Shown here: one piece after another, positions 1 to 14,606 of the stretch
Position numbering within the stretch: position 1 is the stretch's first letter
How the letters are laid out: each line of letters opens with the position of its first letter
Assembly: GCA_017461545.1 (NCBI GenBank)
Contig: JAFTXP010000014.1
Location: 121,006 to 185,005 of the forward strand
Origin: Clostridia bacterium
GTDB lineage: Bacteria; Bacillota; Clostridia; UBA1212
Direction: 5' to 3'
DNA: 64,000 bases
The notes under the pieces: model-generated
The model's database searches: none
Told to the model about the DNA's origin: nothing
What the model saw: the letters and a program-made list of their open reading frames with translations, nothing else
Made by a program: the position numbers and the translations under genes

Positions 1-1639
1 TAATAAATTCTGAAATTATATCTATAGAATTTGAAATATCCTCAGTACCGAAAGCACAAGCTAAATCTATTAAAACTTTTTTCAATGCATTATCACTATT
101 AGATTTCTCCAATAATAATTTCCATACAGGAATTATACAAAGTGCGACTGCGTGTCCATGACTGATATTATAATCTGTTGTCAATTTATAACTCATAGAA
201 TGAGCAGCAGTTGTTCTTGTAATATTAATTGCTCTTCCGCTATAATTTGAAGCAGTAATAATATCTTCATAGCACTCTTCTTTTCCGTTTAAATAGTCTT
301 TATAATTATTTAAAATTAATCTTATGCATTTCTTAGAATATTCTTTACTTTCTTCTGTTGCTCCTTTAGACCAAAACGATTCTACTGCCTGACATAACGA
401 ATCCAGTATAGTTGATTTTTTTTGATAATCAGGTAATGTCTTTAATGCATCAGAGCATAATATTGCATGATCAGGCAATGCACATCCATAATCTATCGAT
501 ATTTTTTTACCTTTATGATACATAACAGCAATTTGGGTTGATTCGCTGCCGCTGCCTGCCGTTGTAGGGACAGCAATGTGTCTCATATTATTATATTTAA
601 ATTTCTTTTCTAAAAAATCATATTCATTTTCTAATGAAGAAAATAGCTTTATACATTTTGCAACATCAATTGCACTTCCTCCACCAATAGAAATAATTAC
701 TTTATAATCACGTTTTTTAAAAAGTTCTACGCCTTTTTTTATCTCTTCATATTTTGGATTTGAAGTAAAATCAGTGAATAAGCTATATTCATAATCCACA
801 AATTCTTTTTTAACAGAATCGGTTAATCTATTACTGCAAACAACAAAAATGTTATCATTAAACCCTATTAATTCCTTTATTGATTTAAAATAATCACCGG
901 AAACTGTAATTGGCTGTTCTCTGTAATCAAAGAACTTAATTTCATTTAAAACACGATTATAATCTATTTCATTATCTATCTCATCAATATAATCATTTTT
1001 ATAAGACATACCTTGTATATTTAATTTATGTGATATTTCGTTTAAAGCGTTTTCAGCATAAACATTAACATATCCTGCCGAAACAAATTCAGCAACTTTA
1101 TTCTTCCATAAAGTCAAATCTTTTTTACTTAACTTATATAGCGGCTGGAAAGCATAACAATCATTATCAAATATATTTATTGAAACTTCTAACAATTTAT
1201 TATCCTTAAATCTACATTTGAAATCCTTTTCCGGCAATGATTTTGTTTCATCATAAAGACAAACTGATTCATTTTTATTTTCTAATAATTTTATAACTAA
1301 ATTTTTATTAAAAACCAAATCACCATGGAGTAATAACACATCATCATCTAAAAATATATTGGCATTATTCATTGATACAATATAATTAGTTTTTTTATAA
1401 TCATCATTTGCAACAAAATCAAAATGAAGATTTCTGAATTTATTTGCAATGTCGTATAATTGCTCTTTAAACGGTCCTGTGGTAATTATAAAATCTTTAA
1501 TTCCGCACTCACTTAAAATTCTTATTTGTCTTTCAAATATTGTTTCACCATTATATAACTTAACCATACACTTTGGATTATTTTCGGTCAATCCTGCCAT
1601 TCTGCTGCCTAATCCTGAGTTAAATATTAATGCTTTCAT
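1..1639 (-). CDS. Bifunctional LicC-like nucleotidyltransferase (phosphonate cytidylyltransferase-type) fused to iron-containing alcohol dehydrogenase (phosphonoacetaldehyde reductase-like). Partial: the C-terminus lies beyond the window start.
   Basis: Hand translation of the minus strand from ATG at 1639 (RBS AAGGA upstream) gives MKALIFNSGLGSRMAGLTENNPKCMVKL..., a GxGxR nucleotidyltransferase N-terminal domain. It is followed by the Fe-ADH glycine motif ISIGGGSAIDVAKCIKLF and a later HGHAVAL. The frame stays open to position 1. The ORF track does not list it because it runs off the edge. Confidence 0.6.
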   Translation of the reverse strand, partial: MKALIFNSGLGSRMAGLTENNPKCMVKLYNGETIFERQIRILSECGIKDFIITTGPFKEQLYDIANKFRNLHFDFVANDDYKKTNYIVSMNNANIFLDDDVLLLHGDLVFNKNLVIKLLENKNESVCLYDETKSLPEKDFKCRFKDNKLLEVSINIFDNDCYAFQPLYKLSKKDLTLWKNKVAEFVSAGYVNVYAENALNEISHKLNIQGMSYKNDYIDEIDNEIDYNRVLNEIKFFDYREQPITVSGDYFKSIKELIGFNDNIFVVCSNRLTDSVKKEFVDYEYSLFTDFTSNPKYEEIKKGVELFKKRDYKVIISIGGGSAIDVAKCIKLFSSLENEYDFLEKKFKYNNMRHIAVPTTAGSGSESTQIAVMYHKGKKISIDYGCALPDHAILCSDALKTLPDYQKKSTILDSLCQAVESFWSKGATEESKEYSKKCIRLILNNYKDYLNGKEECYEDIITASNYSGRAINITRTTAAHSMSYKLTTDYNISHGHAVALCIIPVWKLLLEKSNSDNALKKVLIDLACAFGTEDISNSIDIISEFI

Positions 1640-2762
1640 TTTTATTCCTTAACTTTTCTTGAAATTCTTTTTTATTAAACGCCGGAGTTGTTGTAGGTCT
1701 TCCTAAGTCCTGTCTTGAAATATTATTTGTATTAATTATCATTGCAATTTTACTATTATTTTTTAATAGTTTAATATTACTTTTCAGTTCTTCTTCGGTA
1801 CATGCAATTAATACTTCTTCAAATCCAAATGCTTTCAAGATTGAATATAGATCAATTTTATCGGAGATTGTCGGCTGTCCTCCGACAGATTCATGACATC
1901 CATTATTGATAAGTATATATTTAAAATTATTTTTAACATTTTGCATTGCTACTGCCAGTCCACCTAAGTGCATTAAGAAAGAACCATCTCCATCTATGCA
2001 AAATATATTTTTATTACTAAACAGACTTATTCCTGCTGCTAAAGATGCTGTATGTCCCATAGAACCAACTGTCAAAAAATCATTAGCGTGATTCTTATCT
2101 TTCTTTTCTCTTATTTCGAAAATTTCCCTTGATGTCTTACCGGTTGTTGAAACTACAAAATCATTATCAGATATATTATTTATAATTATTTCCAGTGATT
2201 TTTCTCTGGTTAAATCATTAATACTATTGTTTTTTATTTGGTTTTCATATTTTGAAAAAGTATCTTTTTTTACAATTACAGCAATAGGTTTTTCATTTTT
2301 TTTAATATAATTGTGACAATAGTTGATTTGATTTTTATATTCATCATTTAAAACAATGTATTTAATATTTAATGTATCTAATAAAGGTAATGTTAATTCT
2401 CCTTGTTTGATATGTTGCGGCTCATCTTTTACACCGGGTTCTCCTCTATAACCAATAACTAACAACATAGGAATTTTATATACGTTCTCATCTGCCAAAG
2501 ATAAAAGAGGATTAATAATATTACCAAGCCCGGAATTCTGCATATATACCAGTCCATAATCAGATGTTGAAATATTGTACCCACACGCTAACGCTAAAGC
2601 ATTACCTTCATTTGCTGCTATTATATGATTCTTACTCGGTGATTTATCTGTTATACACATACAAAGTTCTTTCAATAACGAATCAGGCACCCCCGTAAAA
2701 AAGGTAAATTCATTATCTAATAATGTGTTATAAAAATCTAATGGATTAATCACTACTATCAC
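1620..2762 (-). CDS. ppd: Phosphonopyruvate decarboxylase (TPP-dependent)
   Basis: 380 aa. N-terminal FFTGVPDSLLKEL and TPP-binding GDGSFLMHLGG...NNG motifs. Typical Ppd length. Overlaps and follows the PEP mutase gene. Confidence 0.75.
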   Translation of the reverse strand: MIVVINPLDFYNTLLDNEFTFFTGVPDSLLKELCMCITDKSPSKNHIIAANEGNALALACGYNISTSDYGLVYMQNSGLGNIINPLLSLADENVYKIPMLLVIGYRGEPGVKDEPQHIKQGELTLPLLDTLNIKYIVLNDEYKNQINYCHNYIKKNEKPIAVIVKKDTFSKYENQIKNNSINDLTREKSLEIIINNISDNDFVVSTTGKTSREIFEIREKKDKNHANDFLTVGSMGHTASLAAGISLFSNKNIFCIDGDGSFLMHLGGLAVAMQNVKNNFKYILINNGCHESVGGQPTISDKIDLYSILKAFGFEEVLIACTEEELKSNIKLLKNNSKIAMIINTNNISRQDLGRPTTTPAFNKKEFQEKLRNKNESINI

Positions 2763-3639
2763 CTATTACTTTTAATATTTCTTCCATGGATGCACAATAG
2801 TTTTCGCTGACATCTTTTGAACATTCATCCTTTAATATTTGTTCGGCAACCATTGTCATTACTTTATAAGAACTTCTCAGCAATTGATTTGCATAAATTA
2901 CTATGTTAGCTCCTCGATCAAATAATTCGTGTTCTTTAAATTGATTATATGCAGTCGGCACTACAACTAACGGGATGTTAACATATTTTATTTTAAATCG
3001 GGTAATAAAATCTAAAATTTCCTGTCCATCATTTTTATAACTATGAATCATTATTCCATCAGCTCCCGCTTTAACATAAGCATCGGCTCTGTCCATCGCA
3101 TCTTCTACATCTTTACCGGCAATAAAACTTTCTACTCTGGCAATAATCATAAAATCATCTGTTTGAAGATGAGATTTACCTTTTTTAATTTTATCAGCAA
3201 ATATTTCTTTATCTTCTAATATTTGAACAGCTTTATTACCCAATAAAGAGTTTTGCTTCAAGCCTTTTTTATCCTCAATAATAACAGCCGATACTCCGAT
3301 TCTCTCTAAAGTTTTAACATTATAAATAAAATGTTCTACATGTCCGCCTGTATCACCATCTACTATAATTGGTTTTGATGTGACTTCCATTATTTCCTCA
3401 ATAGTCTTAACTCTGCTTGAAAAATCTATCACTTCATTGTCAGGTTTTCCTTTTAGAGTAGAATCACACAATGAACTTAACCACATAGCGTCATATTCTT
3501 TATTATCAACTTTTGTATTTTCAACAATTAATCCTGTCAATCCATTTGATGCTTCCAGTACTCTCAAAATTTTTTTCTTATATAAAATTTGTTTTAATCT
3601 TTTTCTTCTTACTTCCGGCATATTGTTATTCACGCACAT
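2746..3639 (-). CDS. pepM: Phosphoenolpyruvate mutase (PEP phosphomutase)
   Basis: Carries the ICL/PEPM-family motif VIIEDKKGLKQNSL (EDKxxxxxNS) and DGDTGG. About 297 aa from ATG (MCVNNN...). The track ORF 2746..3654 begins at an upstream TTG. Adjacent to ppd. Confidence 0.75.
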   Translation of the reverse strand: MCVNNNMPEVRRKRLKQILYKKKILRVLEASNGLTGLIVENTKVDNKEYDAMWLSSLCDSTLKGKPDNEVIDFSSRVKTIEEIMEVTSKPIIVDGDTGGHVEHFIYNVKTLERIGVSAVIIEDKKGLKQNSLLGNKAVQILEDKEIFADKIKKGKSHLQTDDFMIIARVESFIAGKDVEDAMDRADAYVKAGADGIMIHSYKNDGQEILDFITRFKIKYVNIPLVVVPTAYNQFKEHELFDRGANIVIYANQLLRSSYKVMTMVAEQILKDECSKDVSENYCASMEEILKVIGDSSD

Positions 3640-4285
3640 CAGTCCCTCTTGCAATTAATCTGTAAATTAACTTACCATTAAGCTTCAAAAATAACCAAAT
3701 ATTTTTAAATATACTAACATAATCCATATAGTCTTTTGTCGCTTCTTTTGTCTTTAGAAAATATTCTTCTTTATAGAAATATTTACTTAGTAAAACATCT
3801 AAGTTTTTTATGTTATATTTGTAATATTGCTCTTCCATTGTTACCGAATCAGATAATTCTACTATTTTACTTACAAATGACATACAATTATAAGCTTTAT
3901 AAATTTTAAACCCATGAAATATTGGCATTGTAATCATTGAAAAGAAATTAAATATATATTCATCATCATTTGATATATTATTTATAAACTTTTCAATTTC
4001 ATTTTTATTTTCTCTTGATACCGGTATTTTAAATATTTTTAATTTTACATATTTGTTTTTTCCAAAAGCATAACAATCCAACGTTTCAATCATAAAACCA
4101 CAATCAAAAGGTGAATAATGTTTTCTTCTTGAAAAAGTAATAAATTTATCAAGCTTATCATCTAAACATACAGCAATATGAGTATAGTCATATTTCGCGA
4201 ACAATCTTGCAAACTTACCCAAACCTGTTAATGCTTTTACTAATACAACATATATACAATCATTTTGACTCTCGTTCTTCTGCAT
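3626..4285 (-). CDS. Hypothetical protein (219 aa) embedded in the phosphonate cluster
   Basis: ORF overlaps both neighbours in an operon-like arrangement. No motif I can name. Lys/Asn/Tyr-rich and predicted soluble. Confidence 0.4.
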   Translation of the reverse strand: MQKNESQNDCIYVVLVKALTGLGKFARLFAKYDYTHIAVCLDDKLDKFITFSRRKHYSPFDCGFMIETLDCYAFGKNKYVKLKIFKIPVSRENKNEIEKFINNISNDDEYIFNFFSMITMPIFHGFKIYKAYNCMSFVSKIVELSDSVTMEEQYYKYNIKNLDVLLSKYFYKEEYFLKTKEATKDYMDYVSIFKNIWLFLKLNGKLIYRLIARGTDVRE

Positions 4286-4964
4286 CTTTTTTACTTAGCC
4301 TTTTAAATAATTGAATTTGTAATCTAATCATTTCATAATACATTGGTATTCCGCCAACAATAAATACAATATCTGCAAATTTTAATTTAACGTCTAAAAC
4401 TTCTACTATCACATTTGGTCCGAATATCATACTTCCTATACATAAAACAATAAAAAATAAATGTGTTTCAATCGGTCCGAGTCTCGGAAATAAAAATTCT
4501 TTTAAGTATAAAATATAATTCATTGCCGTAAAAATTATAAGTGCATAAACCGGTACTAAAAAAATTGATATTTGAAAACTAACAAATCCTGCAAAAGAAA
4601 GAGCGATTATTAAATATGTAATATGTAATATATCACTCAACAAATCAAAATATCCACCTGCTATTGATGACATATTTCTAGTTCTTGCTACATAACCATC
4701 AAGATCATCACAAATTAAATGACATAAAAGACCTGATATAGTTCCTATCAAAAATAATGGATTGAGCTTAGCTAAAAACGCACAGACAATTCCAATCAAT
4801 CCACCTATTGCTCCAATTAAGGTTATTTGATTAGGAGTCATATTTTTAGGAATATGAACACCTACCCGTTTATATAAAAATTGTTGGAAACCGGTTTCTA
4901 ATTTACTGGGTATTATTTTTTTCACTTTATCTTCTTTTGCCACATTATTTTCACTCATGATCAT
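4260..4964 (-). CDS. CDP-alcohol phosphatidyltransferase family protein
   Basis: 234 aa, multi-TM. Family signature CDDLDGYVARTRNMSSIAGGYFDLLSDILH (D-G-x2-A-R...G-x3-D-x3-D). Confidence 0.7.
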   Translation of the reverse strand: MIMSENNVAKEDKVKKIIPSKLETGFQQFLYKRVGVHIPKNMTPNQITLIGAIGGLIGIVCAFLAKLNPLFLIGTISGLLCHLICDDLDGYVARTRNMSSIAGGYFDLLSDILHITYLIIALSFAGFVSFQISIFLVPVYALIIFTAMNYILYLKEFLFPRLGPIETHLFFIVLCIGSMIFGPNVIVEVLDVKLKFADIVFIVGGIPMYYEMIRLQIQLFKRLSKKDAEERESK

Positions 4965-6330
4965 TTCTCCTTTTTGATTTAAACATATTAACTATAAATG
5001 ATTTAATATAATCACCGTAATCTATAAAATCATAAACTCCTTCTTTTTTCCCTTTTAAAAATAATTTTATCAACAGCATATAATAATTTAAATAATATTT
5101 CTTTACACTCATTTTAGACGGTTTAGCTACAACATGAAGATAATCCCAATGGGATGGATTATCAGTTATAATTCTGTCCCTATACATGTCATAAGTTTCT
5201 ATCCCAAATTCAGGTGTAAAAATAGAAATCGCAACGTGTTTCAAATTATGGTTTTTTATCCATTTATATAACAATTTAAAATCTTTTGATTCGAAATCTA
5301 AATCAACAATAAACATTCCCATAATGTTTATTCCGTACTTATTGCAAATGTCGATACTTTTAATATTGTTATTTACATTAGACTTCTTATTATATTTTGT
5401 TAAATTATTATCATTTATCGCTTCTAATCCAACTAAAACATAATACAGACCTATGTCTTTTAGCTCTCTCATTGTTTCTTCATTCTGAACTATAAAATCA
5501 GATCTTCCGTAACATATATATTTCTTATTAACTTTTTTCTGTTTAATCAATGAAATAAAATTTTTTAATCTTTCTTCATTAAATAGAAAATCATCATCAA
5601 CTATATAAATATTATCTGTCTTTATTTTTGATATTTCATTTACTACATCTTCTATATCTCTGTAAACATATTTTCCGCAATTCATTCTGTTCCTGTGACA
5701 GAACTTACAATGATATGGGCAACAATATGCCGTTCTTACCCATGCTGAATGTTCTAGTTCCAAATAACGATAATTATTAGGATGTTCATAAAAATAAGTT
5801 CTGTCCGGCAATGGTAATTCGTTTATATCAAATGGTTTAGATTCATTTTTTATCCATACATTATCTCTTTTATAACAAATACCATCAACATTCTCTAATT
5901 TTATTTTCTTTTTGTTTATACTGTAATCAACCATATCCAATATTTTAAAAATATCAAATGTAGTCAAAATATAATCAACACAATCTTTGTACATTCTTTC
6001 ATAACTTAGTTGTGCGTGTAATCCCCCGATAATTGTTAAAATATTACTATTAAACTTTTTAGCTTCTTCGCAATATTCAAGCATAAAGTTTTCTTGTCTT
6101 GTTCTACCACATACATATACAACATCCGGATTAATTTCTTTTATTTTAGTTGGTACATCAATTTTTTCAATTTGACCGTCATATATATGTATTTCATAAT
6201 CTCGTTCTTTTAAAACACTTGAAATGTATTCTAATTCTAAACATTCGTTCTCTATAACTCCTACAAAGTTATACTTTGTTCTGGATATTTCAGGATGAAT
6301 TAAGAGAAATTTTAATTTTTTATTGTTCAT
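4951..6330 (-). CDS. B12-binding domain radical SAM protein (class B, Fom3-like candidate methyltransferase)
   Basis: N-terminal Rossmann/B12-like region (KLKFLLIHPEIS...). Radical SAM cysteine triad CPYHCKFC (CxxxCxxC). Likely start is ATG (MNNKK) with GAGG 9 nt upstream. The track start 6345 is an upstream ATG with no RBS. Confidence 0.7.
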   Translation of the reverse strand: MNNKKLKFLLIHPEISRTKYNFVGVIENECLELEYISSVLKERDYEIHIYDGQIEKIDVPTKIKEINPDVVYVCGRTRQENFMLEYCEEAKKFNSNILTIIGGLHAQLSYERMYKDCVDYILTTFDIFKILDMVDYSINKKKIKLENVDGICYKRDNVWIKNESKPFDINELPLPDRTYFYEHPNNYRYLELEHSAWVRTAYCCPYHCKFCHRNRMNCGKYVYRDIEDVVNEISKIKTDNIYIVDDDFLFNEERLKNFISLIKQKKVNKKYICYGRSDFIVQNEETMRELKDIGLYYVLVGLEAINDNNLTKYNKKSNVNNNIKSIDICNKYGINIMGMFIVDLDFESKDFKLLYKWIKNHNLKHVAISIFTPEFGIETYDMYRDRIITDNPSHWDYLHVVAKPSKMSVKKYYLNYYMLLIKLFLKGKKEGVYDFIDYGDYIKSFIVNMFKSKRRNDHE

Positions 6331-6440
6331 CTTCATCCGCCTCATTAATTACAATAATTCATAATTTCTTTCTACAATTTTTTGTTAATTCTGCTCGATC
6401 CTTTGTTTAAATACGCTATTATAAAACTTATATCAAAAAG

Positions 6441-7091
6441 TTAAGATTTTTTTACACTTACTATACCGCTATATTTACTAATCACTTTTGTTTCTAATTC
6501 ATTTTTATCCATATTTTCCTCTAACAATTTCTTTATTGCATTAAATAGTTTTTCATTTGCCTTTTCCATATCCAACTTTGATACATCTATTGGTTTACCA
6601 AATACTATTTTTAAATTCTTGGAAAACATCTTATAACTTCCTGTTATTGAATAAGGAACAATAATGCTATTGGTTTTTTTCGCCATTGATACTGCACCGT
6701 ATTTAAAGGGTAGCAATAGTTCTTCAGTATAATTCCTTTTTGCTTCAGGAGATAAATTAATTAAATTACCTTCTTTCAGCTTTTCTGTTGCAGCATCAGA
6801 GGCGGCTTTATTAGTTGCACTGTTTAAATCAACAGGTATTGTTCCAACCGCTCTAAAAAAGAATCCAAATATTCCATCATGCAAATTTTTTTTGGCTAAA
6901 GTAAATACTATCCGCTTTGTACAAACATCTACTAATATCGGATCTAATGCGTGTTTATGATTCCCTGCAATTATTGCAGCACCATTTTTAGGTATGTATT
7001 GCTCATTTATAATCTTCGGTCTAAATACAAATTTGAATAACGGTAAAAATATCACTCTAAATACTTTATACAAATAATACTTCTTTGTCAT
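6441..7091 (-). CDS. 1-acyl-sn-glycerol-3-phosphate acyltransferase family (PlsC-like)
   Basis: 216 aa. HxxxxD acyltransferase motif (AGNHKHALDP). RBS AAAGGAG and an extended -10 promoter lie upstream. AT-rich like the downstream cluster. Confidence 0.65.
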   Translation of the reverse strand: MTKKYYLYKVFRVIFLPLFKFVFRPKIINEQYIPKNGAAIIAGNHKHALDPILVDVCTKRIVFTLAKKNLHDGIFGFFFRAVGTIPVDLNSATNKAASDAATEKLKEGNLINLSPEAKRNYTEELLLPFKYGAVSMAKKTNSIIVPYSITGSYKMFSKNLKIVFGKPIDVSKLDMEKANEKLFNAIKKLLEENMDKNELETKVISKYSGIVSVKKS

Positions 7092-7117
7092 AAAAACTCC
7101 TTTTGTTTACAAAAAAC

Positions 7118-7146
7118 ATTATACCACATTTTACAAATATTGACTA
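7118..7146 (-). promoter_or_regulatory. Sigma-A-type promoter for the plsC-like and phosphonate cluster genes
   Basis: Minus-strand reading TAGTCA-17 nt-TGgTATAAT (extended -10), about 25 nt upstream of the start at 7091. Confidence 0.4.
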
Positions 7147-7191
7147 AAGCATATTAAGAGATGTAATGTATTACCTCTGATTTTCATTGCA

Positions 7192-7228
7192 AAAAAATTG
7201 TCTACACTTTATTGTGCAGACAATTTTA
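7192..7228 (-). terminator. Intrinsic terminator downstream of secA
   Basis: Near-perfect inverted repeat ttgtctacac/gtgcagacaa followed by a T7 run on the minus strand. Confidence 0.6.
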
Positions 7229-7343
7229 TTATCTTATATTTTTTAATACATTTCTAAATTCTGTATTATTATCAATTCAAACCTTACCATCGTTTATATT
7301 ATCGTGAAATGCAAACGATGGCAATAATTCTACCTGCATCAAC

Positions 7344-10151
7344 TTAATCATCATCCTTGCCGCAGCAATCCTTATATTTCTTACCGCTTCCGCAGGGGCA
7401 TTTATCATTTCTTCCTACTTTAGCAGTATTTCTCTTATAAGTATTTATACTATTTTTACCGGAAGCAATTGCCGCAGGGTCTTCACCTTTAGCATTCACC
7501 GTTACCGAAGAACGTGTCACATCGGTCGTATCAAATTTCTCTGAAAAGCTCTTTGCAATTTTCTGACGCTCAATGGCCTCATCCATCTTAGAAAAATTTG
7601 TAAACAATGTTCTGACAGTATTTTTCTGAATGTCTGCATTCATTTCATCAAACATTTCGCTTGCCTCAAACTGATATTCTACAACAGGATCATGATGTCC
7701 GAGAGATCTGAGACCTATACCGTGCTTTAACTGATCAACAGCATCAATATGTGTCATCCAATTTGTATCTACTATCCTTAAAAGAATACTTCTTTCATAT
7801 TCACGCATTTTTTCAGGATCAAACATTTTTTCGTGTTCTTCATAACGATTTATTGCTTCGGAATATAAAGATTCTTTTAAATCATTCTTCTTGGCATTTG
7901 AACAATTATTACAAACATCGTTTAAAGTGTCTGCAGACACGAGCGCAGCCATGGAATCTCTGAAAGCGTCAACATGCCATTCTGAAGAAGGAATATCTTT
8001 TCTGCAAAACTCGTCAACAGCATTTTCTATGACACGTTTTATCATATTCATCAAAACTTCTCTGATATCTTCCCCGTCAAGCACACGTCTTCTTTGCTCA
8101 TATATAATCTCACGTTGCTGATTTATTACATCATCATACTTTATGACATTCTTTCTGATTTCAAAGTTTCGGCTTTCAATCTGTTTCTGAGCATTTTCTA
8201 TAGCCCTTGTAATCATTTTCATCTCGATAATCGGTTGATCTTCCGGAACATCAAGTGCATTTACAAGACCTGCAACTCTGTCTGAACCGAAAAGACGCAT
8301 TATATCATCTTCAAACGAAATGTAAAATCTTGATTCACCCGGGTCCCCCTGTCGGCCTGAACGACCGCGAAGCTGATTATCTATACGTCTTGACTCATGA
8401 CGCTCTGTACCCATAATAAACAGACCGCCTGCTTCTCTGACCTTTTCGCGCTCTGCATTTACGTCAACAGAAAACTTCTCAACAAGATCCTTATATGTCT
8501 TTCTTACATCGCATATCAATTGGTCATCTGTATCATTTACGCCGTCAGCTTCCAATACCATAGCTTCTTCGTATCCCATTCTGCGAAGTTCCTGCTTTGC
8601 CATATGCTCAGCATTACCGCCCAATGTAATATCGGTACCACGTCCTGCCATGTTTGTAGCTATTGTTACAGCGCCTAACTTACCGGCCTGAGCAACAATC
8701 TCTGCTTCTCTTTCATGATGCTTAGCATTAAGAACATTATGTTTGATGCCATGTTTCATAAGTAACTTGCTCAGATACTCGGATTTCTCAATAGAAACAG
8801 TACCTACAAGTACAGGCTGTCCTTTTTCGTGAGCCTTTATAACATCATTTGCCAAAGCCTGATATTTACCCTTTACAGACTTGAAAACCGCATCCTCATG
8901 GTCAATTCTTTTTACAGGTTTGTTTGTAGGAATAACAACTACATCAAGGTTGTAGATTTCATTAAATTCCTCTTCTTCGGTAAGAGCAGTACCGGTCATA
9001 CCGGAAAGCTTTTTGTACATACGGAAATAGTTCTGGAAAGTAATCGTTGCAAGTGTCATACTCTCCTTTTCTACTTTTACACGCTCTTTAGCCTCAATAG
9101 CCTGATGCAAGCCTTCGTTGTATCGTCTTCCGATCATAATACGACCGGTAAATTCGTCGACAATCAAAACACTGTTGTCTTTTACAACGTAATCAATATC
9201 ACGCTTCATAATTCCGTGAGCTTTGATAGCCTGATTTATATGATGTGCAATAGATGCATTTTCCGGATCGGAATAACATTCGATATTAAACCAAGCCTCA
9301 GCTTTTGCAATACCGTTTCTGGTAAGTGTTGCAGTACGGGCTTTTTCATCAACGATGTAGTCTTCTTCCACATCCTCCATCAAGTCTTTTTTGTCAGCTT
9401 CTTTTATGACAAGTTTTGAAAGCGATACTGCAAATGAGTTTGCCTTTTCGTACATTTCGCTGGATTTATTGCCCTGACCCGAAATGATCAAAGGAGTACG
9501 TGCTTCGTCGATGAGAATACTATCCACTTCGTCAACAACGGCAAAGTGAAGATCACGCTGTACCATCTCACTCTTATATCGAACCATATTGTCACGGAGA
9601 TAATCAAATCCCAGCTCATTGTTTGTTCCGTAAGTAATATCACATGCATATGCCTGCTGTCTCTGCTCATGGTTCATATCGTGTATAACAACACCGACAG
9701 AAAGTCCGAGAAAATTGTAAATTTTACCCATCCATTCGCTGTCACGCTTTGCAAGGTAATCATTTACCGTAACAACATGTACGCCTTTGCCTTCCAATGC
9801 ATTAAGATACGCCGGCAATGTAGAAACAAGGGTTTTACCTTCACCGGTTTTCATCTCGGCAATTCTGCCCTGATGCAGAACAACACCGCCTATAAGCTGA
9901 ACATCATAATGACGCTGTCCGAGGACACGCCATGCGGCTTCGCGTACCACAGCAAAAGCTTCAGGCAATATGCTGTCAAGAGTTTCTCCCTCGGCAATTC
10001 TTGCTTTAAACTTATCCGTCATGCCTCTGAGCTCTTTGTCACTTAAAGATTTCATTTTAGGCTCAAGAGAATTTATTTCATTTATTATCGGTTTAATTTC
10101 TTTTACGGCTCTTTCACTGTTCGAGCCGAATATTTTTTCAAATAGACCCAT
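7344..10151 (-). CDS. secA: Preprotein translocase ATPase SecA
   Basis: 935 aa with a DEAD-like motor. C-terminal zinc finger [14 protein letters not shown]. Confidence 0.95.
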
Positions 10152-10224
10152 TTATAGTAAACCTCATTTATTTAATAATATTATTTTTTATAATACCGCA
10201 ATTTAAGTATTATGTCAAAAGCAG

Positions 10225-10827
10225 TCAAAGACCGCCGAGCTCATCAAGCGAGCATTCAAAAGAAGGTATAAAATTATCTATAAAATAATCTGCCTCCGGC
10301 ATATTCATAACCTTTATACTTTCTGCAGTAGCCTTTTTAGCGGCAAGAAATTCGCTGTTTCCCGATTTAACTTCCTCGATGCACTTGATATGTGCCGAGA
10401 TCTTATCGGCCGCTTTAACTATCTTTTTGCACTCCTCGTTATCCTCATCAAAGAAAAGTATCTCCTCATATTCTTTTCTGAAATCATCGGGAAGCATTTC
10501 AAGCAATCGGTTTTTGCTTAAATTCTCTATCTCGCGGTAGGACTCATTTATCTGATGATTGAAATATTTTACCGGCGTCGGCAAATCTCCGGTAATCGTT
10601 TCGTTTGCATCATGGTATAACGCATAAATACAAATCCTGTCCGCGTCATAATTTTTACCGTAATACTTATTGCCTATCAAAGCAAGCATATGTGCAAGCA
10701 TCGCCGTCTGACCGCTGTGCTCCAGAATATTTTCTGTAGCGGTGTTTCTCATAAGACCCCAGCGATTTATATATTTCATGCGGTTTAAGTATGCGAAAAA
10801 ACTTTTATCATTTTGTAAACTTTTCAT
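10225..10827 (-). CDS. yfbR: HD-domain 5'-deoxynucleotidase (YfbR-like)
   Basis: NRWGLMRNTATENILEHSGQ and YHDANETITGDLPTPVKY closely resemble YfbR. Likely start is MKSLQ... with GAGGT RBS. The track start 10845 lies inside a hairpin. Confidence 0.7.
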   Translation of the reverse strand: MKSLQNDKSFFAYLNRMKYINRWGLMRNTATENILEHSGQTAMLAHMLALIGNKYYGKNYDADRICIYALYHDANETITGDLPTPVKYFNHQINESYREIENLSKNRLLEMLPDDFRKEYEEILFFDEDNEECKKIVKAADKISAHIKCIEEVKSGNSEFLAAKKATAESIKVMNMPEADYFIDNFIPSFECSLDELGGL

Positions 10828-10845
10828 AAAGTACCTCAAAGGCAT

Positions 10846-10885
10846 TCACGCAGCGACAGCAGATATGCCAGCTGTCGCTGCGTGA
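10846..10885 (-). promoter_or_regulatory. Perfect 15-bp-stem RNA hairpin between the prfB stop and the yfbR RBS, with no U-tract
   Basis: tcacgcagcgacagc-agatatgcca-gctgtcgctgcgtga. No T run follows on either strand. Possible processing or stability element, or weak attenuator. Confidence 0.45.
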
Positions 10886-10894
10886 AAATAACCG

Positions 10895-12005
10895 TTATTT
10901 ATTATTAAATTCGTTAGCAAGGAAAGCGTTGATAAATCCGTCCAACGCTCCGTCCATAACCTTCTGTACATTCGTATCTTCAAAAGATGTTCTGTGGTCT
11001 TTTACAAGAGTATACGGGCAAAATACGTATGAACGAATCTGACTGCCCCAGGCAATCTCTTTCTGTACACCTTTTATGTCCGAAATTTTCTCAACCTGCT
11101 CTTGCTGTTTTATTTCAAACAGCTTTGACTTAAGCATTTTCATAGCAGTTTCAGTATTCTGGAGCTGCGAACGCTCAGTCTGACAAGAAACCATAATGCC
11201 TGTAGGCTTGTGAACGATACGCGTAGCCGAGTCAGTTTTGTTTATGTGCTGACCGCCGGCACCGCTTGAACGGTAGTGGCTCACTTCTATATCCTCTGCC
11301 GGTATATCGATCTCTATGGTATCATCTATCTCGGGCATTACCTCAACTGACGTAAACGATGTGTGACGTCTGCCGGCCGAGTCAAACGGCGAAATTCTGA
11401 CGAGACGGTGAACACCGTGCTCACTCTTCAGAAAACCGTAAGCATTTATTCCGTTTACCTGAATAACAGCACTTTTTATACCTGCATCATCGCCGTCAAG
11501 AAAGTCAATAAGCTTTACTTCGTAACCGTGCGCATCGCCCCAACGTGTGTACATACGGAGAAGCATCTGAGTCCAGTCCTGTGCCTCCGTTCCGCCGGCC
11601 CCGGAGTGAAGTGTCAGAATCGCATTATTTGCGTCATATTCGCCGGTAAGAAGCGTTTCAAGACGAAGTGCATTAAACTCACTTTTAAATTTATCCATGA
11701 GTTCTGCAACAACATCAACATATGCAAGATCCTGCTCTTCGTTTCCGATTTCAATCGTGACCTGTATCTCTTCAAAAACAGACTCAAGTTCCGTAAATTT
11801 GCCCAATTTTTCTTTTAAAACCTTAAGCTGTTTGAGCACAGCCTGTGAATTTGCTGCATCGTTCCAGAAATCAGGTTCCGATGCTTTGTTTTCAAGTTCT
11901 TCTATCTTGTTTGACATCCCGGTCGTGTCAAAGTGAATCCCTCAAATCATATAAATTTTTCTGTAAACCCTCAAGCTCCAAGCTGAACTGGTCTAACTCA
12001 AACAT
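10895..12005 (-). CDS. prfB: Peptide chain release factor 2, with programmed +1 frameshift
   Basis: The track ORF 10895..11917 carries the GGQ motif SSGAGGQHINKTDSA and SPFDSAGRRHTSF. The upstream frame from ATG at 12005 reads MFELDQFSLELEGLQKNLYDLRDSL then CTT TGA C, the canonical RF2 frameshift site at about 11927-11933. That joins the main frame in +1 (DTTGMSNKIEE...). Confidence 0.9.
11927..11933 (-). other. prfB: Programmed +1 ribosomal frameshift site CTT TGA C in prfB
   Basis: Read directly: ...AGG GAT TCA CTT TGA CAC GAC C. An SD-like AGGGAT sits a few nt upstream, as in classic RF2 autoregulation. Confidence 0.8.
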
Positions 12006-12009
12006 ATAC

Positions 12010-14148
12010 TCATCTCCTTTTGCCTTTTCGGGGCGCTTTTTTCTTTACAGAAGTCTTTTTCTTGCTTCTTTTTGATTTTTTTAAAAAGTCATTTGCACCG
12101 TAAGATGCTTTTATATTTCTGCGCGGTTTTCTGCTGCGGTCTGATCCCGATCGCTTCTCATCGGCAGGCACAAATTCTATCTGCCTCATGATTGTATTTG
12201 CCTCCGCCAGAATAACTCTGACAGAATCACCTATATGAAGGACACGGCCCGACTGCATATTTCTGGCAACCATATAATCGTTGTCAAATTCGTATCTGCC
12301 GCGCATTTCACTATATCGTAACAATCCTTCGACCGTGTTGTCAAGTACAATAAATACACCGAAGCCCGTAATACCCGAAATAGTTCCGGTAAATTCTTCG
12401 CCTTCAAACTGTTTCATATACTCTACACACTTAATATCTATACTTTCTCGCTCGGCATCGGCGGCCCTTCGCTCCATTGCAGAACACTGCTTTGCGATAT
12501 CAGGCATCTTCGCAGAGTAATATTCGTACTTCTTCGACGTAAAATTACCGATTAAAACAAGTTTCATTATCCTGTGAATCATCAAGTCTGGATAACGTCT
12601 TATCGGAGAAGTAAAATGGGTGTAATATTTCATACTCAAGCCGAAATGGCCGAGACATTCATGACTGTATTCTGCCTTTCTCATAGATCGAAGTGTCAAT
12701 AAGTTCACAAGATTTTCGGTCGGTCTGCCCTTTGCTGAATCCAATAACATCCGGAATGCTTTGGGATGAATATTTCCGCCTGCTTTTCCTTTTAAAGAAT
12801 ATCCTAGGTTTTTAACTACTCTTGCAAGTTCGCCTATTTTTTCGGGATCGGGGTCTTCGTGTACACGGTACAAAAAAGGAACATCTCTCCAGTGAAAATC
12901 CTCCGCAACGGTTCTGTTGCACAGCAACATAAACTCTTCGATGATATTGTTTGCAAAAGTTACTGAGTACGGTTTTATTTCAACAGTATTTCCGTCCTGA
13001 TCCAATACAACCTTTGTCTCGGGAAAATCAAAATTTATATACCCATCTTGCTGTCTCCGCCAGTTAAGCGCATCGGCAAGGTTTCTCATCATGACCAGCT
13101 CGTCTATATGCTCCGAATACACCTTCTCAAGCTCCGGGGTCCGGTTTTCCAACAGGTCATACAGCTTCTCGTAGGAAATTTTATATTTAACATTTATTAT
13201 GCTTTCAAAAATCTCATGACTTACAACAGCGCCGCTCGGAGAAATCTCCATCATGACAGTGAACGCCAAACGGTCAACGCCGACGTTCAAACTGCATATT
13301 CCGTTTGAAAGACTTCTTGGAAGCATCGGTATCACACGGTCTGCAAGATATACGCTTGTAGCCCTCTCATACGCCTCCCTGTCAAGTGCGGTGCCCGGTT
13401 TTACATACTCGTTTACATCCGCGATATGAACGCCCAAAAGATAGTTTCCGTTTTCAAGCATTTCAATCGAAATACCGTCGTCAACGTCCTTTGTATCCTC
13501 GCCGTCAATCGTTACCACGGTTATGTTTCTGATGTCGCGTCTGCCCTTATTTATATAACCGGCAATCATTTCATCGCTTAGCTCTGACGGCAAATACATC
13601 GCTTCGTGTAGAACATCTTCCGGAAACTCTGCAATAATTCCCTTTGCTTTCATCATAGCAGTTATTTCAACAGAAGATTCTCCGACTTTACCGACAACCT
13701 CAAGTATTACAGCTTCTCCGTCATATTTTCCCTCTACAGGCATTTTATTTATCTCAAATATAACTTTATCATTTCCGCTGATGCCTGTGACATCACCTTT
13801 TATTCTTATGATACCGTTATATTTCATATTGTCCGGAGCAACACACAAATAACTTCCATACGAGTATACATTACCTGAAAAAATCCGATTTCCCTTCTCA
13901 ATGATTTTTAAAACTTTACCTTCGCGCCTGTTTTTCGAAACAGCACTTCCACCGCTCAGATGTATATATATTTCTCTTTTAGAAAGCTCAACAAGAACAG
14001 TATCACCGGTGAGAGCTCCGCCCGTATTATTTTTTCCTATATAAATATCTCTCTTGTCCTCAAGCAAATTCTCGTCAGACGGAGTAACAAAAGCTGTACC
14101 CTTTGACGTAATCTGAATTACTCCTTTTATATGGTTCTTATCAGTCAA
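12010..14148 (-). CDS. rnr: Ribonuclease R (3'-5' exoribonuclease, RNB family)
   Basis: 712 aa with an RNB catalytic core and S1 domain. Lys/Arg-rich C-terminal tail. secG-rnr synteny. Confidence 0.9.
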   Translation of the reverse strand: MTDKNHIKGVIQITSKGTAFVTPSDENLLEDKRDIYIGKNNTGGALTGDTVLVELSKREIYIHLSGGSAVSKNRREGKVLKIIEKGNRIFSGNVYSYGSYLCVAPDNMKYNGIIRIKGDVTGISGNDKVIFEINKMPVEGKYDGEAVILEVVGKVGESSVEITAMMKAKGIIAEFPEDVLHEAMYLPSELSDEMIAGYINKGRRDIRNITVVTIDGEDTKDVDDGISIEMLENGNYLLGVHIADVNEYVKPGTALDREAYERATSVYLADRVIPMLPRSLSNGICSLNVGVDRLAFTVMMEISPSGAVVSHEIFESIINVKYKISYEKLYDLLENRTPELEKVYSEHIDELVMMRNLADALNWRRQQDGYINFDFPETKVVLDQDGNTVEIKPYSVTFANNIIEEFMLLCNRTVAEDFHWRDVPFLYRVHEDPDPEKIGELARVVKNLGYSLKGKAGGNIHPKAFRMLLDSAKGRPTENLVNLLTLRSMRKAEYSHECLGHFGLSMKYYTHFTSPIRRYPDLMIHRIMKLVLIGNFTSKKYEYYSAKMPDIAKQCSAMERRAADAERESIDIKCVEYMKQFEGEEFTGTISGITGFGVFIVLDNTVEGLLRYSEMRGRYEFDNDYMVARNMQSGRVLHIGDSVRVILAEANTIMRQIEFVPADEKRSGSDRSRKPRRNIKASYGANDFLKKSKRSKKKTSVKKKAPRKGKRR

Positions 14149-14201
14149 AATAATAAAACTCCTTTGTACTTTAATCTCTCATATTTATCATCAATAAATA
14201 A

Positions 14202-14246
14202 CAAAAAAGCCGGAACATACACTAAAATACGTTCCGGCAAAAAAAC
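14202..14246 (-). terminator. Intrinsic terminator downstream of secG
   Basis: gccggaac...gttccggc stem followed by T6 on the minus strand. Confidence 0.55.
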
Positions 14247-14266
14247 TGTAAATAATACAATGAAAA

Positions 14267-14491
14267 TCAAAGTGCAATAACGACAGTAAAAGCAACAGCA
14301 GATACGGCAAATAAAACACCTAATACAATAGTAAGCTTACTGAGAAAAGCTTTTTTGGAAGACGATTTGTTCTTTCCATAAAAAGACTCAGAACTCTGTC
14401 CTGTAATCGCTGAAGCGTTTCCTTCGTTAGAATCCTGCAACATAACAATAATTACTAACGCTAAACATATAATTAAATAAACAATTCCCAT
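14267..14491 (-). CDS. secG: Preprotein translocase subunit SecG
   Basis: About 74 aa from MGIVYLIICLALVIIVMLQDS..., a two-TM SecG-like sequence. The track ORF is extended upstream. Confidence 0.65.
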   Translation of the reverse strand: MGIVYLIICLALVIIVMLQDSNEGNASAITGQSSESFYGKNKSSSKKAFLSKLTIVLGVLFAVSAVAFTVVIAL

Positions 14492-14606
14492 TGCAACCTT
14501 TAAAACACCCACAGTTAAGCACCTCCATAATATCATCTGCATGTCAAAACATGACATACAAACGACAATATTCTATCACATAGAAACTTCTAAAGCAAGT
14601 CTTATT

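Follow-up and report, generated by a model that had tools for sequence, protein, structure and literature searches.

Fom3 is the radical S-adenosylmethionine (SAM) enzyme, reliant on methylcobalamin, that methylates C2 of CMP-2-hydroxyethylphosphonate (CMP-2-HEP) in the fosfomycin biosynthesis of Streptomyces wedmorensis and S. fradiae. A gene of a Clostridia bacterium (GTDB lineage UBA1212) had been compared to it in a preliminary description, which placed the gene at the head of a phosphonate operon. This gene lies on the minus strand, at positions 4951 to 6345 of a 64,000-nucleotide stretch of contig JAFTXP010000014.1 (assembly GCA_017461545.1, positions 121,006 to 185,005), hereafter called the window. 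The analysis reported here makes it very probable that the encoded protein belongs to an HpnR/BchE-like, uncharacterised clade of class B-type radical SAM enzymes and is not a Fom3, and that this enzyme is fixed in a mobile lipid cassette associated, in this genome, with a module supplying 2-hydroxyethylphosphonate (HEP) and CMP-HEP. The features of the gene are the following:

4951..6345, minus strand: B12-binding-domain radical SAM enzyme, 464 aa as called (probable start at 6330, giving 459 aa)
5971..6237, minus strand: N-terminal Rossmann-type B12-binding domain, residues 37-125 (Pfam PF02310, AlphaFold2 model and Foldseek)
5698..5721, minus strand: CxxxCxxC [4Fe-4S]/SAM motif, C209 PYH C213 KF C216 (motif scan)

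Architecture and fold place the protein among the class B-type (B12-domain) radical SAM enzymes. The combination of a B12-binding-like domain with a CxxxCxxC triad, already proposed in the preliminary description, was confirmed by the Pfam matches to PF02310 (residues 37-125, 44.5 bits for a cut-off of 32.1) and to PF04055, Radical_SAM (residues 207-354, 62.5 bits for a cut-off of 29.5), and by the sequence CPYHCKFC at residues 209-216, which is unchanged throughout the family and in 101 relatives. The AlphaFold2 model (pLDDT 77.9) was submitted to Foldseek, and its best structural matches are all cobalamin-type radical SAM enzymes, with OxsB at the top, and MgmA, AprD4, CysS and TokK. At the sequence level, AprD4 is the sole match in the PDB (E 6e-6). 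The open reading frame is not a chance one, since 886 homologs were found and the best 120 share 66-88% identity with it; among these 120, the source names are Faecalimonas, Butyrivibrio, Lachnospiraceae and Clostridiaceae, and metagenome assemblies predominate. The translation start is likely M6 (ATG at 6330) because the homologs all begin there, as does GenBank MBQ8164887.1, a 'radical SAM protein' from a Clostridia metagenome-assembled genome (MAG) to which the protein read from M6 (459 aa) is identical. Cobalamin binding and methyl transfer via methylcobalamin are putative for this enzyme.

The proposed relationship to Fom3 did not withstand direct comparison. To get an authentic reference, an HppE sequence identical to PDB 1ZZ6 was used to retrieve the S. 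wedmorensis fom cluster, from which Fom3 was taken (L004:8380-9981). The alignment gave 22% identity (55 bits) and no specific similarity, and Fom3 is longer (534 aa versus 459 aa for the window enzyme). In a HMMER scan of 1.84 billion cluster representatives, 256 relatives fell below E 1e-30 and 6,398 below E 1e-10. Fom3 scores 38 bits with the hidden Markov model (HMM) of the family, and the 150 nearest 50%-cluster representatives each score at least 176 bits, the 150th scoring 176; none of these 150 exceeds 26% identity to Fom3. The top NCBIfam family of Fom3 is 'Sden_1168 family B12-binding radical SAM P-methyltransferase' (300 bits, cut-off 575), followed by HpnJ, meaning that the nearest curated relatives of Fom3 are annotated as P-methylases. 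The window enzyme gave no match to the Sden_1168 profile, and its own nearest curated families are HpnR and BchE. The low identity, the HMM score and the differing best curated families together rule out that the enzyme is a Fom3 ortholog. The PDB, searched by sequence and with Foldseek, yielded no structure of Fom3.

Among curated NCBIfam profiles, the enzyme matches HpnR best (143.6 bits), then BchE (113 bits) and PhpK (84 bits), all far below their cut-offs. The HpnR alignment is nearly full length, as residues 11-420 of the enzyme align with positions 1-404 of the 490 of the profile. HpnR is also the best profile for 93 of the 101 nearest representatives, none of which reaches its cut-off (best E 1.5e-90), and a few of these 101 carry a fused PfaD or serine-palmitoyltransferase-like domain. 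Thus the closest characterised homologs of the window enzyme are an unrelated methylase, HpnR, and a non-methylating enzyme, BchE. The preliminary description had itself named such an outcome as a refutation, and its homology-based part accordingly fails.

The gene is the second of a seven-gene cassette, whose other elements are listed below in the order of transcription:

7118..7146, minus strand: promoter-like site TAGTCA-17-TGgTATAAT with extended -10 (consensus match only)
6441..7091, minus strand: PlsC-like acyltransferase, 216 aa, first cassette gene (PF01553, 81 bits)
6346..6440, minus strand: 95-nt gap where, by locus comparison, relatives have a FadD-like long-chain acyl-CoA ligase gene
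4260..4964, minus strand: CDP-alcohol phosphotransferase, 234 aa (232 aa if started at the second ATG, 4958; PF01066, 43 bits, cut-off 22)
3626..4285, minus strand: 219-aa protein of a new family with a permuted NlpC/P60 predicted fold (predicted structure)
2746..3654, minus strand: phosphoenolpyruvate (PEP) phosphomutase, PepM (TIGR02320, 360.5 bits, cut-off 319.6; motif EDKKGLKQNS)
1620..2762, minus strand: phosphonopyruvate decarboxylase, Ppd (TIGR03297, 422.8 bits, cut-off 312.5)
1..1639, minus strand: fusion of a PF12804 nucleotidyltransferase (LicC/PntC-like) and an Fe-dependent alcohol dehydrogenase (Fe-ADH; FomC/PhpC-like), from Pfam and PDB matches

Contrary to the preliminary description, the radical SAM gene does not head the operon, since the PlsC-like acyltransferase gene precedes it by 95 nt. 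From the radical SAM gene to the last gene, successive genes overlap (-14, -26, -29, -17 and -20 nt). The 14-nt overlap with the CDP-alcohol phosphotransferase frame, reported earlier, is correct when counted from the first ATG of that frame; gene callers prefer the second one (4958), which shortens the overlap to 8 nt. The promoter-like site is the only one with an extended -10 on the minus strand of this region; it is located upstream of the acyltransferase gene, in a 252-nt gap after secA, and probably marks where the cassette operon begins. A promoter and terminator scan of the region found such sites no more numerous than in shuffled sequence.

To follow the cassette in other genomes, its proteins were mapped onto about 40 loci, retrieved by exact-protein look-ups and one metagenome scan and corresponding to about 25 distinct loci after collapsing duplicates. 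A constant unit was found in more than 30 loci, made of the acyltransferase, a FadD-like acyl-CoA ligase, the radical SAM enzyme, the CDP-alcohol phosphotransferase and the 219-aa protein. The acyltransferase gene lies upstream of the radical SAM gene in nearly all of them, and in relatives the ligase gene overlaps the start of the radical SAM gene. What lies downstream of this core varies:

PepM-Ppd with nucleotidyltransferase and alcohol dehydrogenase, fused or split: about 14 distinct loci
Fom1-like cytidylyltransferase-PepM fusion, Ppd and stand-alone nucleotidyltransferase, without alcohol dehydrogenase (L054/55): 1 distinct locus
Nucleotidyltransferase only, two of them (L011, L017) with a major facilitator superfamily (MFS) transporter: 4 distinct loci
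Nothing, the core lying between housekeeping genes (e.g. L019, L009): 5 distinct loci
Radical SAM gene alone (L041): 1 distinct locus

Adjacent PepM and Ppd genes are missing in about 11 of the 25 distinct loci, a count that refers to the genes present at the locus. The core of L019 stands next to hrcA-grpE-dnaK, and that of L009 belongs to Butyrivibrio sp. X503. In L011 (12683-13921) and L017, PepM, Ppd and the alcohol dehydrogenase are replaced by an MFS transporter of the organophosphate:phosphate antiporter (OPA) family, PgtP/UhpC/GlpT-like, and the retained nucleotidyltransferase is 84% identical to the corresponding domain of the window. The radical SAM enzyme of L011 is also the nearest to that of the window among the loci mapped (78% identity). 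This arrangement suggests that salvage of an exogenous phosphonate or phosphoester replaces de novo synthesis. In L054 (10717-13881) and L055, the module consists of a cytidylyltransferase (PF01467)-PepM fusion, Ppd and a PF12804 nucleotidyltransferase, with neither alcohol dehydrogenase nor aminotransferase. In a neighbour-joining tree of the radical SAM enzymes, the basal cassette lineages all carry PepM, and the types devoid of it are scattered among PepM-bearing ones, indicating that the phosphonate module was repeatedly lost or replaced while the core was kept intact. As side observations, the neighbours of the cassette in L054/L055 are Bacteroidota-like (SusC-like TonB receptor, ECF sigma/anti-sigma), and L019, which has no adjacent phosphonate or nucleotidyltransferase genes, encodes a second small radical SAM protein (Radical_SAM and Fer4_12, 320 aa; 6692-7654) directly upstream of the acyltransferase gene.

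The cassette also behaves as a mobile unit. In the window it coincides with a low-GC island (27% GC, range 25-31%) whose boundaries are exactly those of the seven genes, within flanks of 35-45% GC and a genome of roughly 40% GC. The same genome has been assembled a second time (L060, 0 mismatches over 14.2 kb), and there the island is complete (7195-14431), positions 1-7300 of the window corresponding to 7000-14500; secA lies on one side of the island and a TPR gene and rpmF on the other. In other genomes, the same cassette is found at unrelated sites, beside sortase-pilus genes, hrcA-grpE-dnaK, or recombinase/integrase genes. The exact match between island and cassette and the unrelated insertion sites point to horizontal transfer. 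The cassette is common in gut and rumen Clostridia and may cross phyla.

In view of this context, the resemblance to the fom cluster can be specified. Both Fom3 and the window enzyme have an N-terminal B12 domain followed by a CxxxCxxC radical SAM domain, and the genes of both lie close to those for PepM, Ppd, an Fe-ADH and a cytidylyltransferase, CMP-HEP being predicted here too. The window PepM carries the EDKx5NS motif and is 51% identical to the mutase domain of Fom1, Ppd is 40% identical to Fom2, and the Fe-ADH domain shares 30% identity with FomC (E 2e-35). Since the radical SAM enzyme reaches 22% with Fom3, it was not inherited along with the phosphonate genes. The fom pathway moreover includes FomD and HppE, whereas tblastn against the whole window found neither below E 0.5. 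The window also holds no homolog of the Fom1-type cytidylyltransferase; the latter belongs to PF01467 and the window nucleotidyltransferase to PF12804, a different fold family. Finally, unlike Fom3, the family of the window enzyme has lipid enzymes as constant partners and also occurs without adjacent phosphonate genes. The neighbourhood of pepM alone is thus insufficient for calling a B12-dependent radical SAM enzyme Fom3-like.

We then looked at sister clades, using a profile built from representatives 37-45% identical to the window enzyme. In a clade represented by Hungatella hathewayi, the gene for the radical SAM enzyme (39% identical to that of the window) forms a divergent pair with one for a 219-aa protein homolog (30-32% identity, E 8e-36), in which the His and Cys are conserved. 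This pairing was found in two unrelated genome contexts, one of them beside DegV, a member of a fatty-acid-binding protein family, and neither context contains a CDP-alcohol phosphotransferase, a nucleotidyltransferase or phosphonate genes. Such pairings and the acyl-related associations indicate that the oldest conserved link of this radical SAM lineage is with the 219-aa (Cys-His) protein and acyl-handling proteins and not with phosphonate synthesis. Other sister clades (L051, L052/L053, L058/L059) contain tandem arrays of 3-5 paralogous B12-dependent radical SAM enzymes, together with an AMP-binding enzyme, a PP-binding carrier protein, an Acetyltransf_6 protein and a SAM methyltransferase. 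These arrays may correspond to pathways that iteratively methylate a substrate tethered to a carrier.

The 219-aa protein itself gave no match in Pfam, in NCBIfam (noise only) or in the PDB by sequence, even with a profile at E 10. Its family counts 343 members in 5.8 billion proteins and adjoins the present radical SAM family wherever the contig allowed the check. The invariant residues are H36, in the motif YTHIA, and N133-C134-M-S-F137. Judged by its predicted fold and these motifs, the protein would be a permuted NlpC/P60 papain-like Cys-His enzyme similar to YiiX and PLAAT. The same fold characterises Cys-His enzymes that pass through acyl-thioester intermediates. One variant of the protein is indexed in 114 blocks of a contig collection; a Hadza sample and a human-gut metagenome are among the four occurrences listed.

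The remaining genes of the cassette are consistent with the assembly of a lipid bearing a phosphonate head group. The catalytic motif D(x)2DG(x)2AR...G(x)3D(x)3D of the CDP-alcohol phosphotransferase is intact, as DDLDGYVAR-x8-G-x3-D-x3-D, with DDLDGYVARTRNMSSIAGGYFDLLSD at residue 86; the top NCBIfam profiles of this protein are AIP and PIP synthases, both below cut-off. The acyltransferase also matches the NCBIfam AGP_acyltrn domain and, weakly, Aas-type acyl-ACP-phospholipid acyltransferases. The intact motif of the former and the PlsC-like nature of the latter bear out the lipid or head-group cluster envisaged in the preliminary description. The phosphonate operon setting stands as well, as this one operon is predicted to provide all four activities that lead to the Fom3 substrate CMP-2-HEP. 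The fused gene encodes 594 aa in full and is the final gene of the island, as read from L060, its last 48 codons lying past the window edge; its nucleotidyltransferase domain matches LicC in the PDB and the PntC enzyme Tde1415. The path from PEP to phosphonoacetaldehyde through phosphonopyruvate is predicted from equivalog-level matches of PepM and Ppd, whereas formation of 2-HEP and CMP-HEP is suggested by the FomC/PhpC and PntC/LicC homologies and by the fusion, HEP formation implying that phosphonoacetaldehyde is the putative substrate of the dehydrogenase. The presence of PepM, Ppd and the fusion in one operon makes CMP-2-hydroxyethylphosphonate a predicted intermediate.

These elements can be arranged in a putative pathway. 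PepM would convert PEP to phosphonopyruvate and Ppd would turn it into phosphonoacetaldehyde, which the Fe-ADH domain would reduce to HEP and the fused nucleotidyltransferase would activate to CMP-HEP. The CDP-alcohol phosphotransferase would then move HEP from CMP-HEP to a lipid alcohol, producing a HEP phosphonolipid. To our knowledge, phosphonolipids are predicted in many bacterial genomes but almost none have been isolated, and we know of none based on HEP. Our tentative proposal, to which we give somewhat less than an even chance, is that the radical SAM enzyme C-methylates an unactivated carbon of the cassette's lipid, by means of a 5'-deoxyadenosyl radical and methylcobalamin, and more likely on the acyl side, with the Cys-His partner, than on the head group. 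The acyl part could be held as an ester or thioester by this protein, which would be membrane-associated. A broader formulation, which we consider somewhat doubtful, is that the radical SAM enzyme and the NlpC/P60-like protein form a hitherto unrecognised two-component lipid-tailoring system, the radical-installed methyl group being placed on the HEP lipid, on an acyl chain or on the head group as 2-hydroxypropylphosphonate. If this were true, the cassette would produce a new class of C-methylated phosphonolipids, made without oxygen, in abundant gut and rumen Clostridia. Such a product would affect the membrane chemistry, the phosphorus economy and the B12 demand of gut anaerobes.

Several observations weigh against a lipid methylase acting on the acyl side. 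The radical SAM gene is translationally coupled to the head-group transferase gene as well as to the ligase gene, and the ligase appears dispensable: its gene is wholly missing in the window and is a pseudogene in L012, L018 and L045-48, the common human-gut variant. The enzyme does not reach the 650-bit cut-off of HpnR (TIGR04367), and AprD4, a diol dehydratase, is B12-free despite its B12-type domain, so the fold alone does not prove the use of the cofactor. As for the Hungatella hathewayi clade, 39% identity leaves room for a different substrate. Lastly, as the basal lineages all carry PepM, the cassette containing the CDP-alcohol phosphotransferase may be ancestrally linked to phosphonates, and the loci devoid of PepM might draw their phosphonate from another part of the genome or from the environment, a possibility suggested by the OPA variant.

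An ancestral link to PepM would fit an enzyme that has converged on the Fom3 reaction and methylates C2 of CMP-2-HEP, or of lipid-borne HEP, to give a 2-hydroxypropylphosphonate head group. The full set of CMP-HEP enzymes is encoded in the same tightly overlapping operon, the radical SAM gene overlaps that of the transferase expected to consume the CMP-phosphonate, the core is accompanied by two phosphonate modules of different build, and C-methylases make up most of the characterised class B enzymes (PMC8992657). However, specific similarity to Fom3 is absent, the nucleotidyltransferase is of the PF12804 and not the PF01467 type, and neither FomD nor HppE has a homolog in the window. The distribution of the genes also argues against this possibility, because the core is intact without adjacent PepM, Ppd or alcohol dehydrogenase in nearly half of the distinct loci, one variant has PepM and Ppd without the dehydrogenase, and the sister clade keeps the radical SAM enzyme and its Cys-His partner without phosphonate or CDP-alcohol genes. 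We thus regard convergence on Fom3 as quite unlikely. P-methylation by a PhpK-like enzyme, yielding a phosphinate, is highly improbable. The PhpK profile does match at 84 bits and the nearest curated family of Fom3 is annotated as a P-methyltransferase, but this match falls far short of the 600-bit cut-off and is surpassed by those to HpnR and BchE, the cassette lacks the genes for H-phosphinate formation (HEPD-type dioxygenase and the following steps), and the loci without phosphonate genes weigh against it. Anaerobic C-C cleavage of HEP was set aside together with P-methylation, given the occurrence of the core without phosphonate genes and the lack of phosphinate-forming genes.

The enzyme could also be a radical enzyme that does not methylate at all, with a B12-like domain supporting or scaffolding a reaction of the lipid or its head group, be it rearrangement, dehydration, cyclisation or C-C coupling. 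BchE, OxsB, HpnJ and AprD4 are precedents for non-methylating reactions, and three of them recur in our comparisons: BchE as the second-best profile (113 bits), B12-free AprD4 as the sole PDB match by sequence (E 6e-6) and OxsB as the top structure in Foldseek. A motif scan of the B12 domain found no DxHxxG, which agrees with such a reaction, but class B methylases lack this motif too. On the other hand, a methylase, HpnR, is the best profile for the window enzyme and for 93 of its 101 relatives, and the methylases MgmA, CysS and TokK match structurally at similar scores. A non-methylating function therefore appears unlikely, and methylation of the lipid, tentative as it is, remains our preferred reading.

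Outside of the cassette, the window contains housekeeping genes, such as prfB, rnr, spoIIGA-sigE-sigG, gap and parC/parE. The spoIIGA-sigE-sigG cluster, at 41.2-43.8 kb, indicates that the host belongs to spore-forming Clostridia. From 7344 to 64000, the open reading frames examined are all on the minus strand and the GC skew is negative throughout, a leading-strand arrangement. No Rfam family, a cobalamin riboswitch for example, was detected at gathering scores in the whole 64-kb window.

How the locus relates to known systems can now be considered from the side of its lipid enzymes. With HpnR, the hopanoid C-3 methylase and a B12-dependent radical SAM lipid methylase, the window enzyme shares its best profile match and a lipid-related gene setting; it differs in that no hopanoid genes were seen here and that the host is an anaerobic spore-forming Clostridia MAG. 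The Cys-His enzymes of the PLAAT/LRAT and YiiX types differ from the 219-aa protein in that the latter has no detectable sequence match to Pfam, NCBIfam or the PDB. The radical SAM enzymes that a 2026 review names as acting on lipids are Tes, Mss, Gms, Grs, Gmm, Cds, HpnH/J/P/R, Jaw5 and the ladderane enzymes (PMC13459092), and no enzyme of this cassette's kind is among them. With the cassette, this short list would gain a bacterial case concerning a glycerolipid or phosphonolipid. In an inventory of phosphonate branch points, HEP-branch clusters are mentioned for other taxa only, and radical SAM neighbours for Campylobacter only (PMC8942020). Our literature searches returned nothing on this cassette, on phosphonolipids based on HEP or 2-hydroxypropylphosphonate, or on B12-dependent radical SAM enzymes associated with a CDP-alcohol phosphotransferase or DegV.

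The closest cluster-level relatives are the phosphonyl-tailoring (Pnt) and predicted phosphonolipid clusters, for instance the 'Burkholderiales_CDP-OH' group (Rice et al. 2019, PMC6697681; Li & Horsman 2022, PMC8942020), which share with the cassette the genes for PepM, Ppd, a PF12804 nucleotidyltransferase, a CDP-alcohol phosphotransferase and a phospholipid-type acyltransferase, and in both cases the logic would be activation with CMP followed by transfer to a lipid. The Pnt clusters belong to the 2-aminoethylphosphonate (AEP) branch (Ppm-Ppd-AEPT, PntC), whereas this cassette corresponds to the HEP branch, with an Fe-ADH fused to the nucleotidyltransferase and no aminotransferase. It also differs by its occurrence in gut and rumen Clostridia and Lachnospiraceae, and it adds to the Pnt and phosphonolipid clusters a B12-dependent radical SAM enzyme and the new NlpC/P60-like protein. 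The enzyme class and the activation and transfer of phosphonates were thus known already; what is new is their combination with a B12-dependent radical SAM enzyme and a new Cys-His protein, a cassette uniting a predicted C-P head group, CMP activation, a putative cobalamin radical enzyme and a probable Cys-His enzyme that has so far escaped classification.

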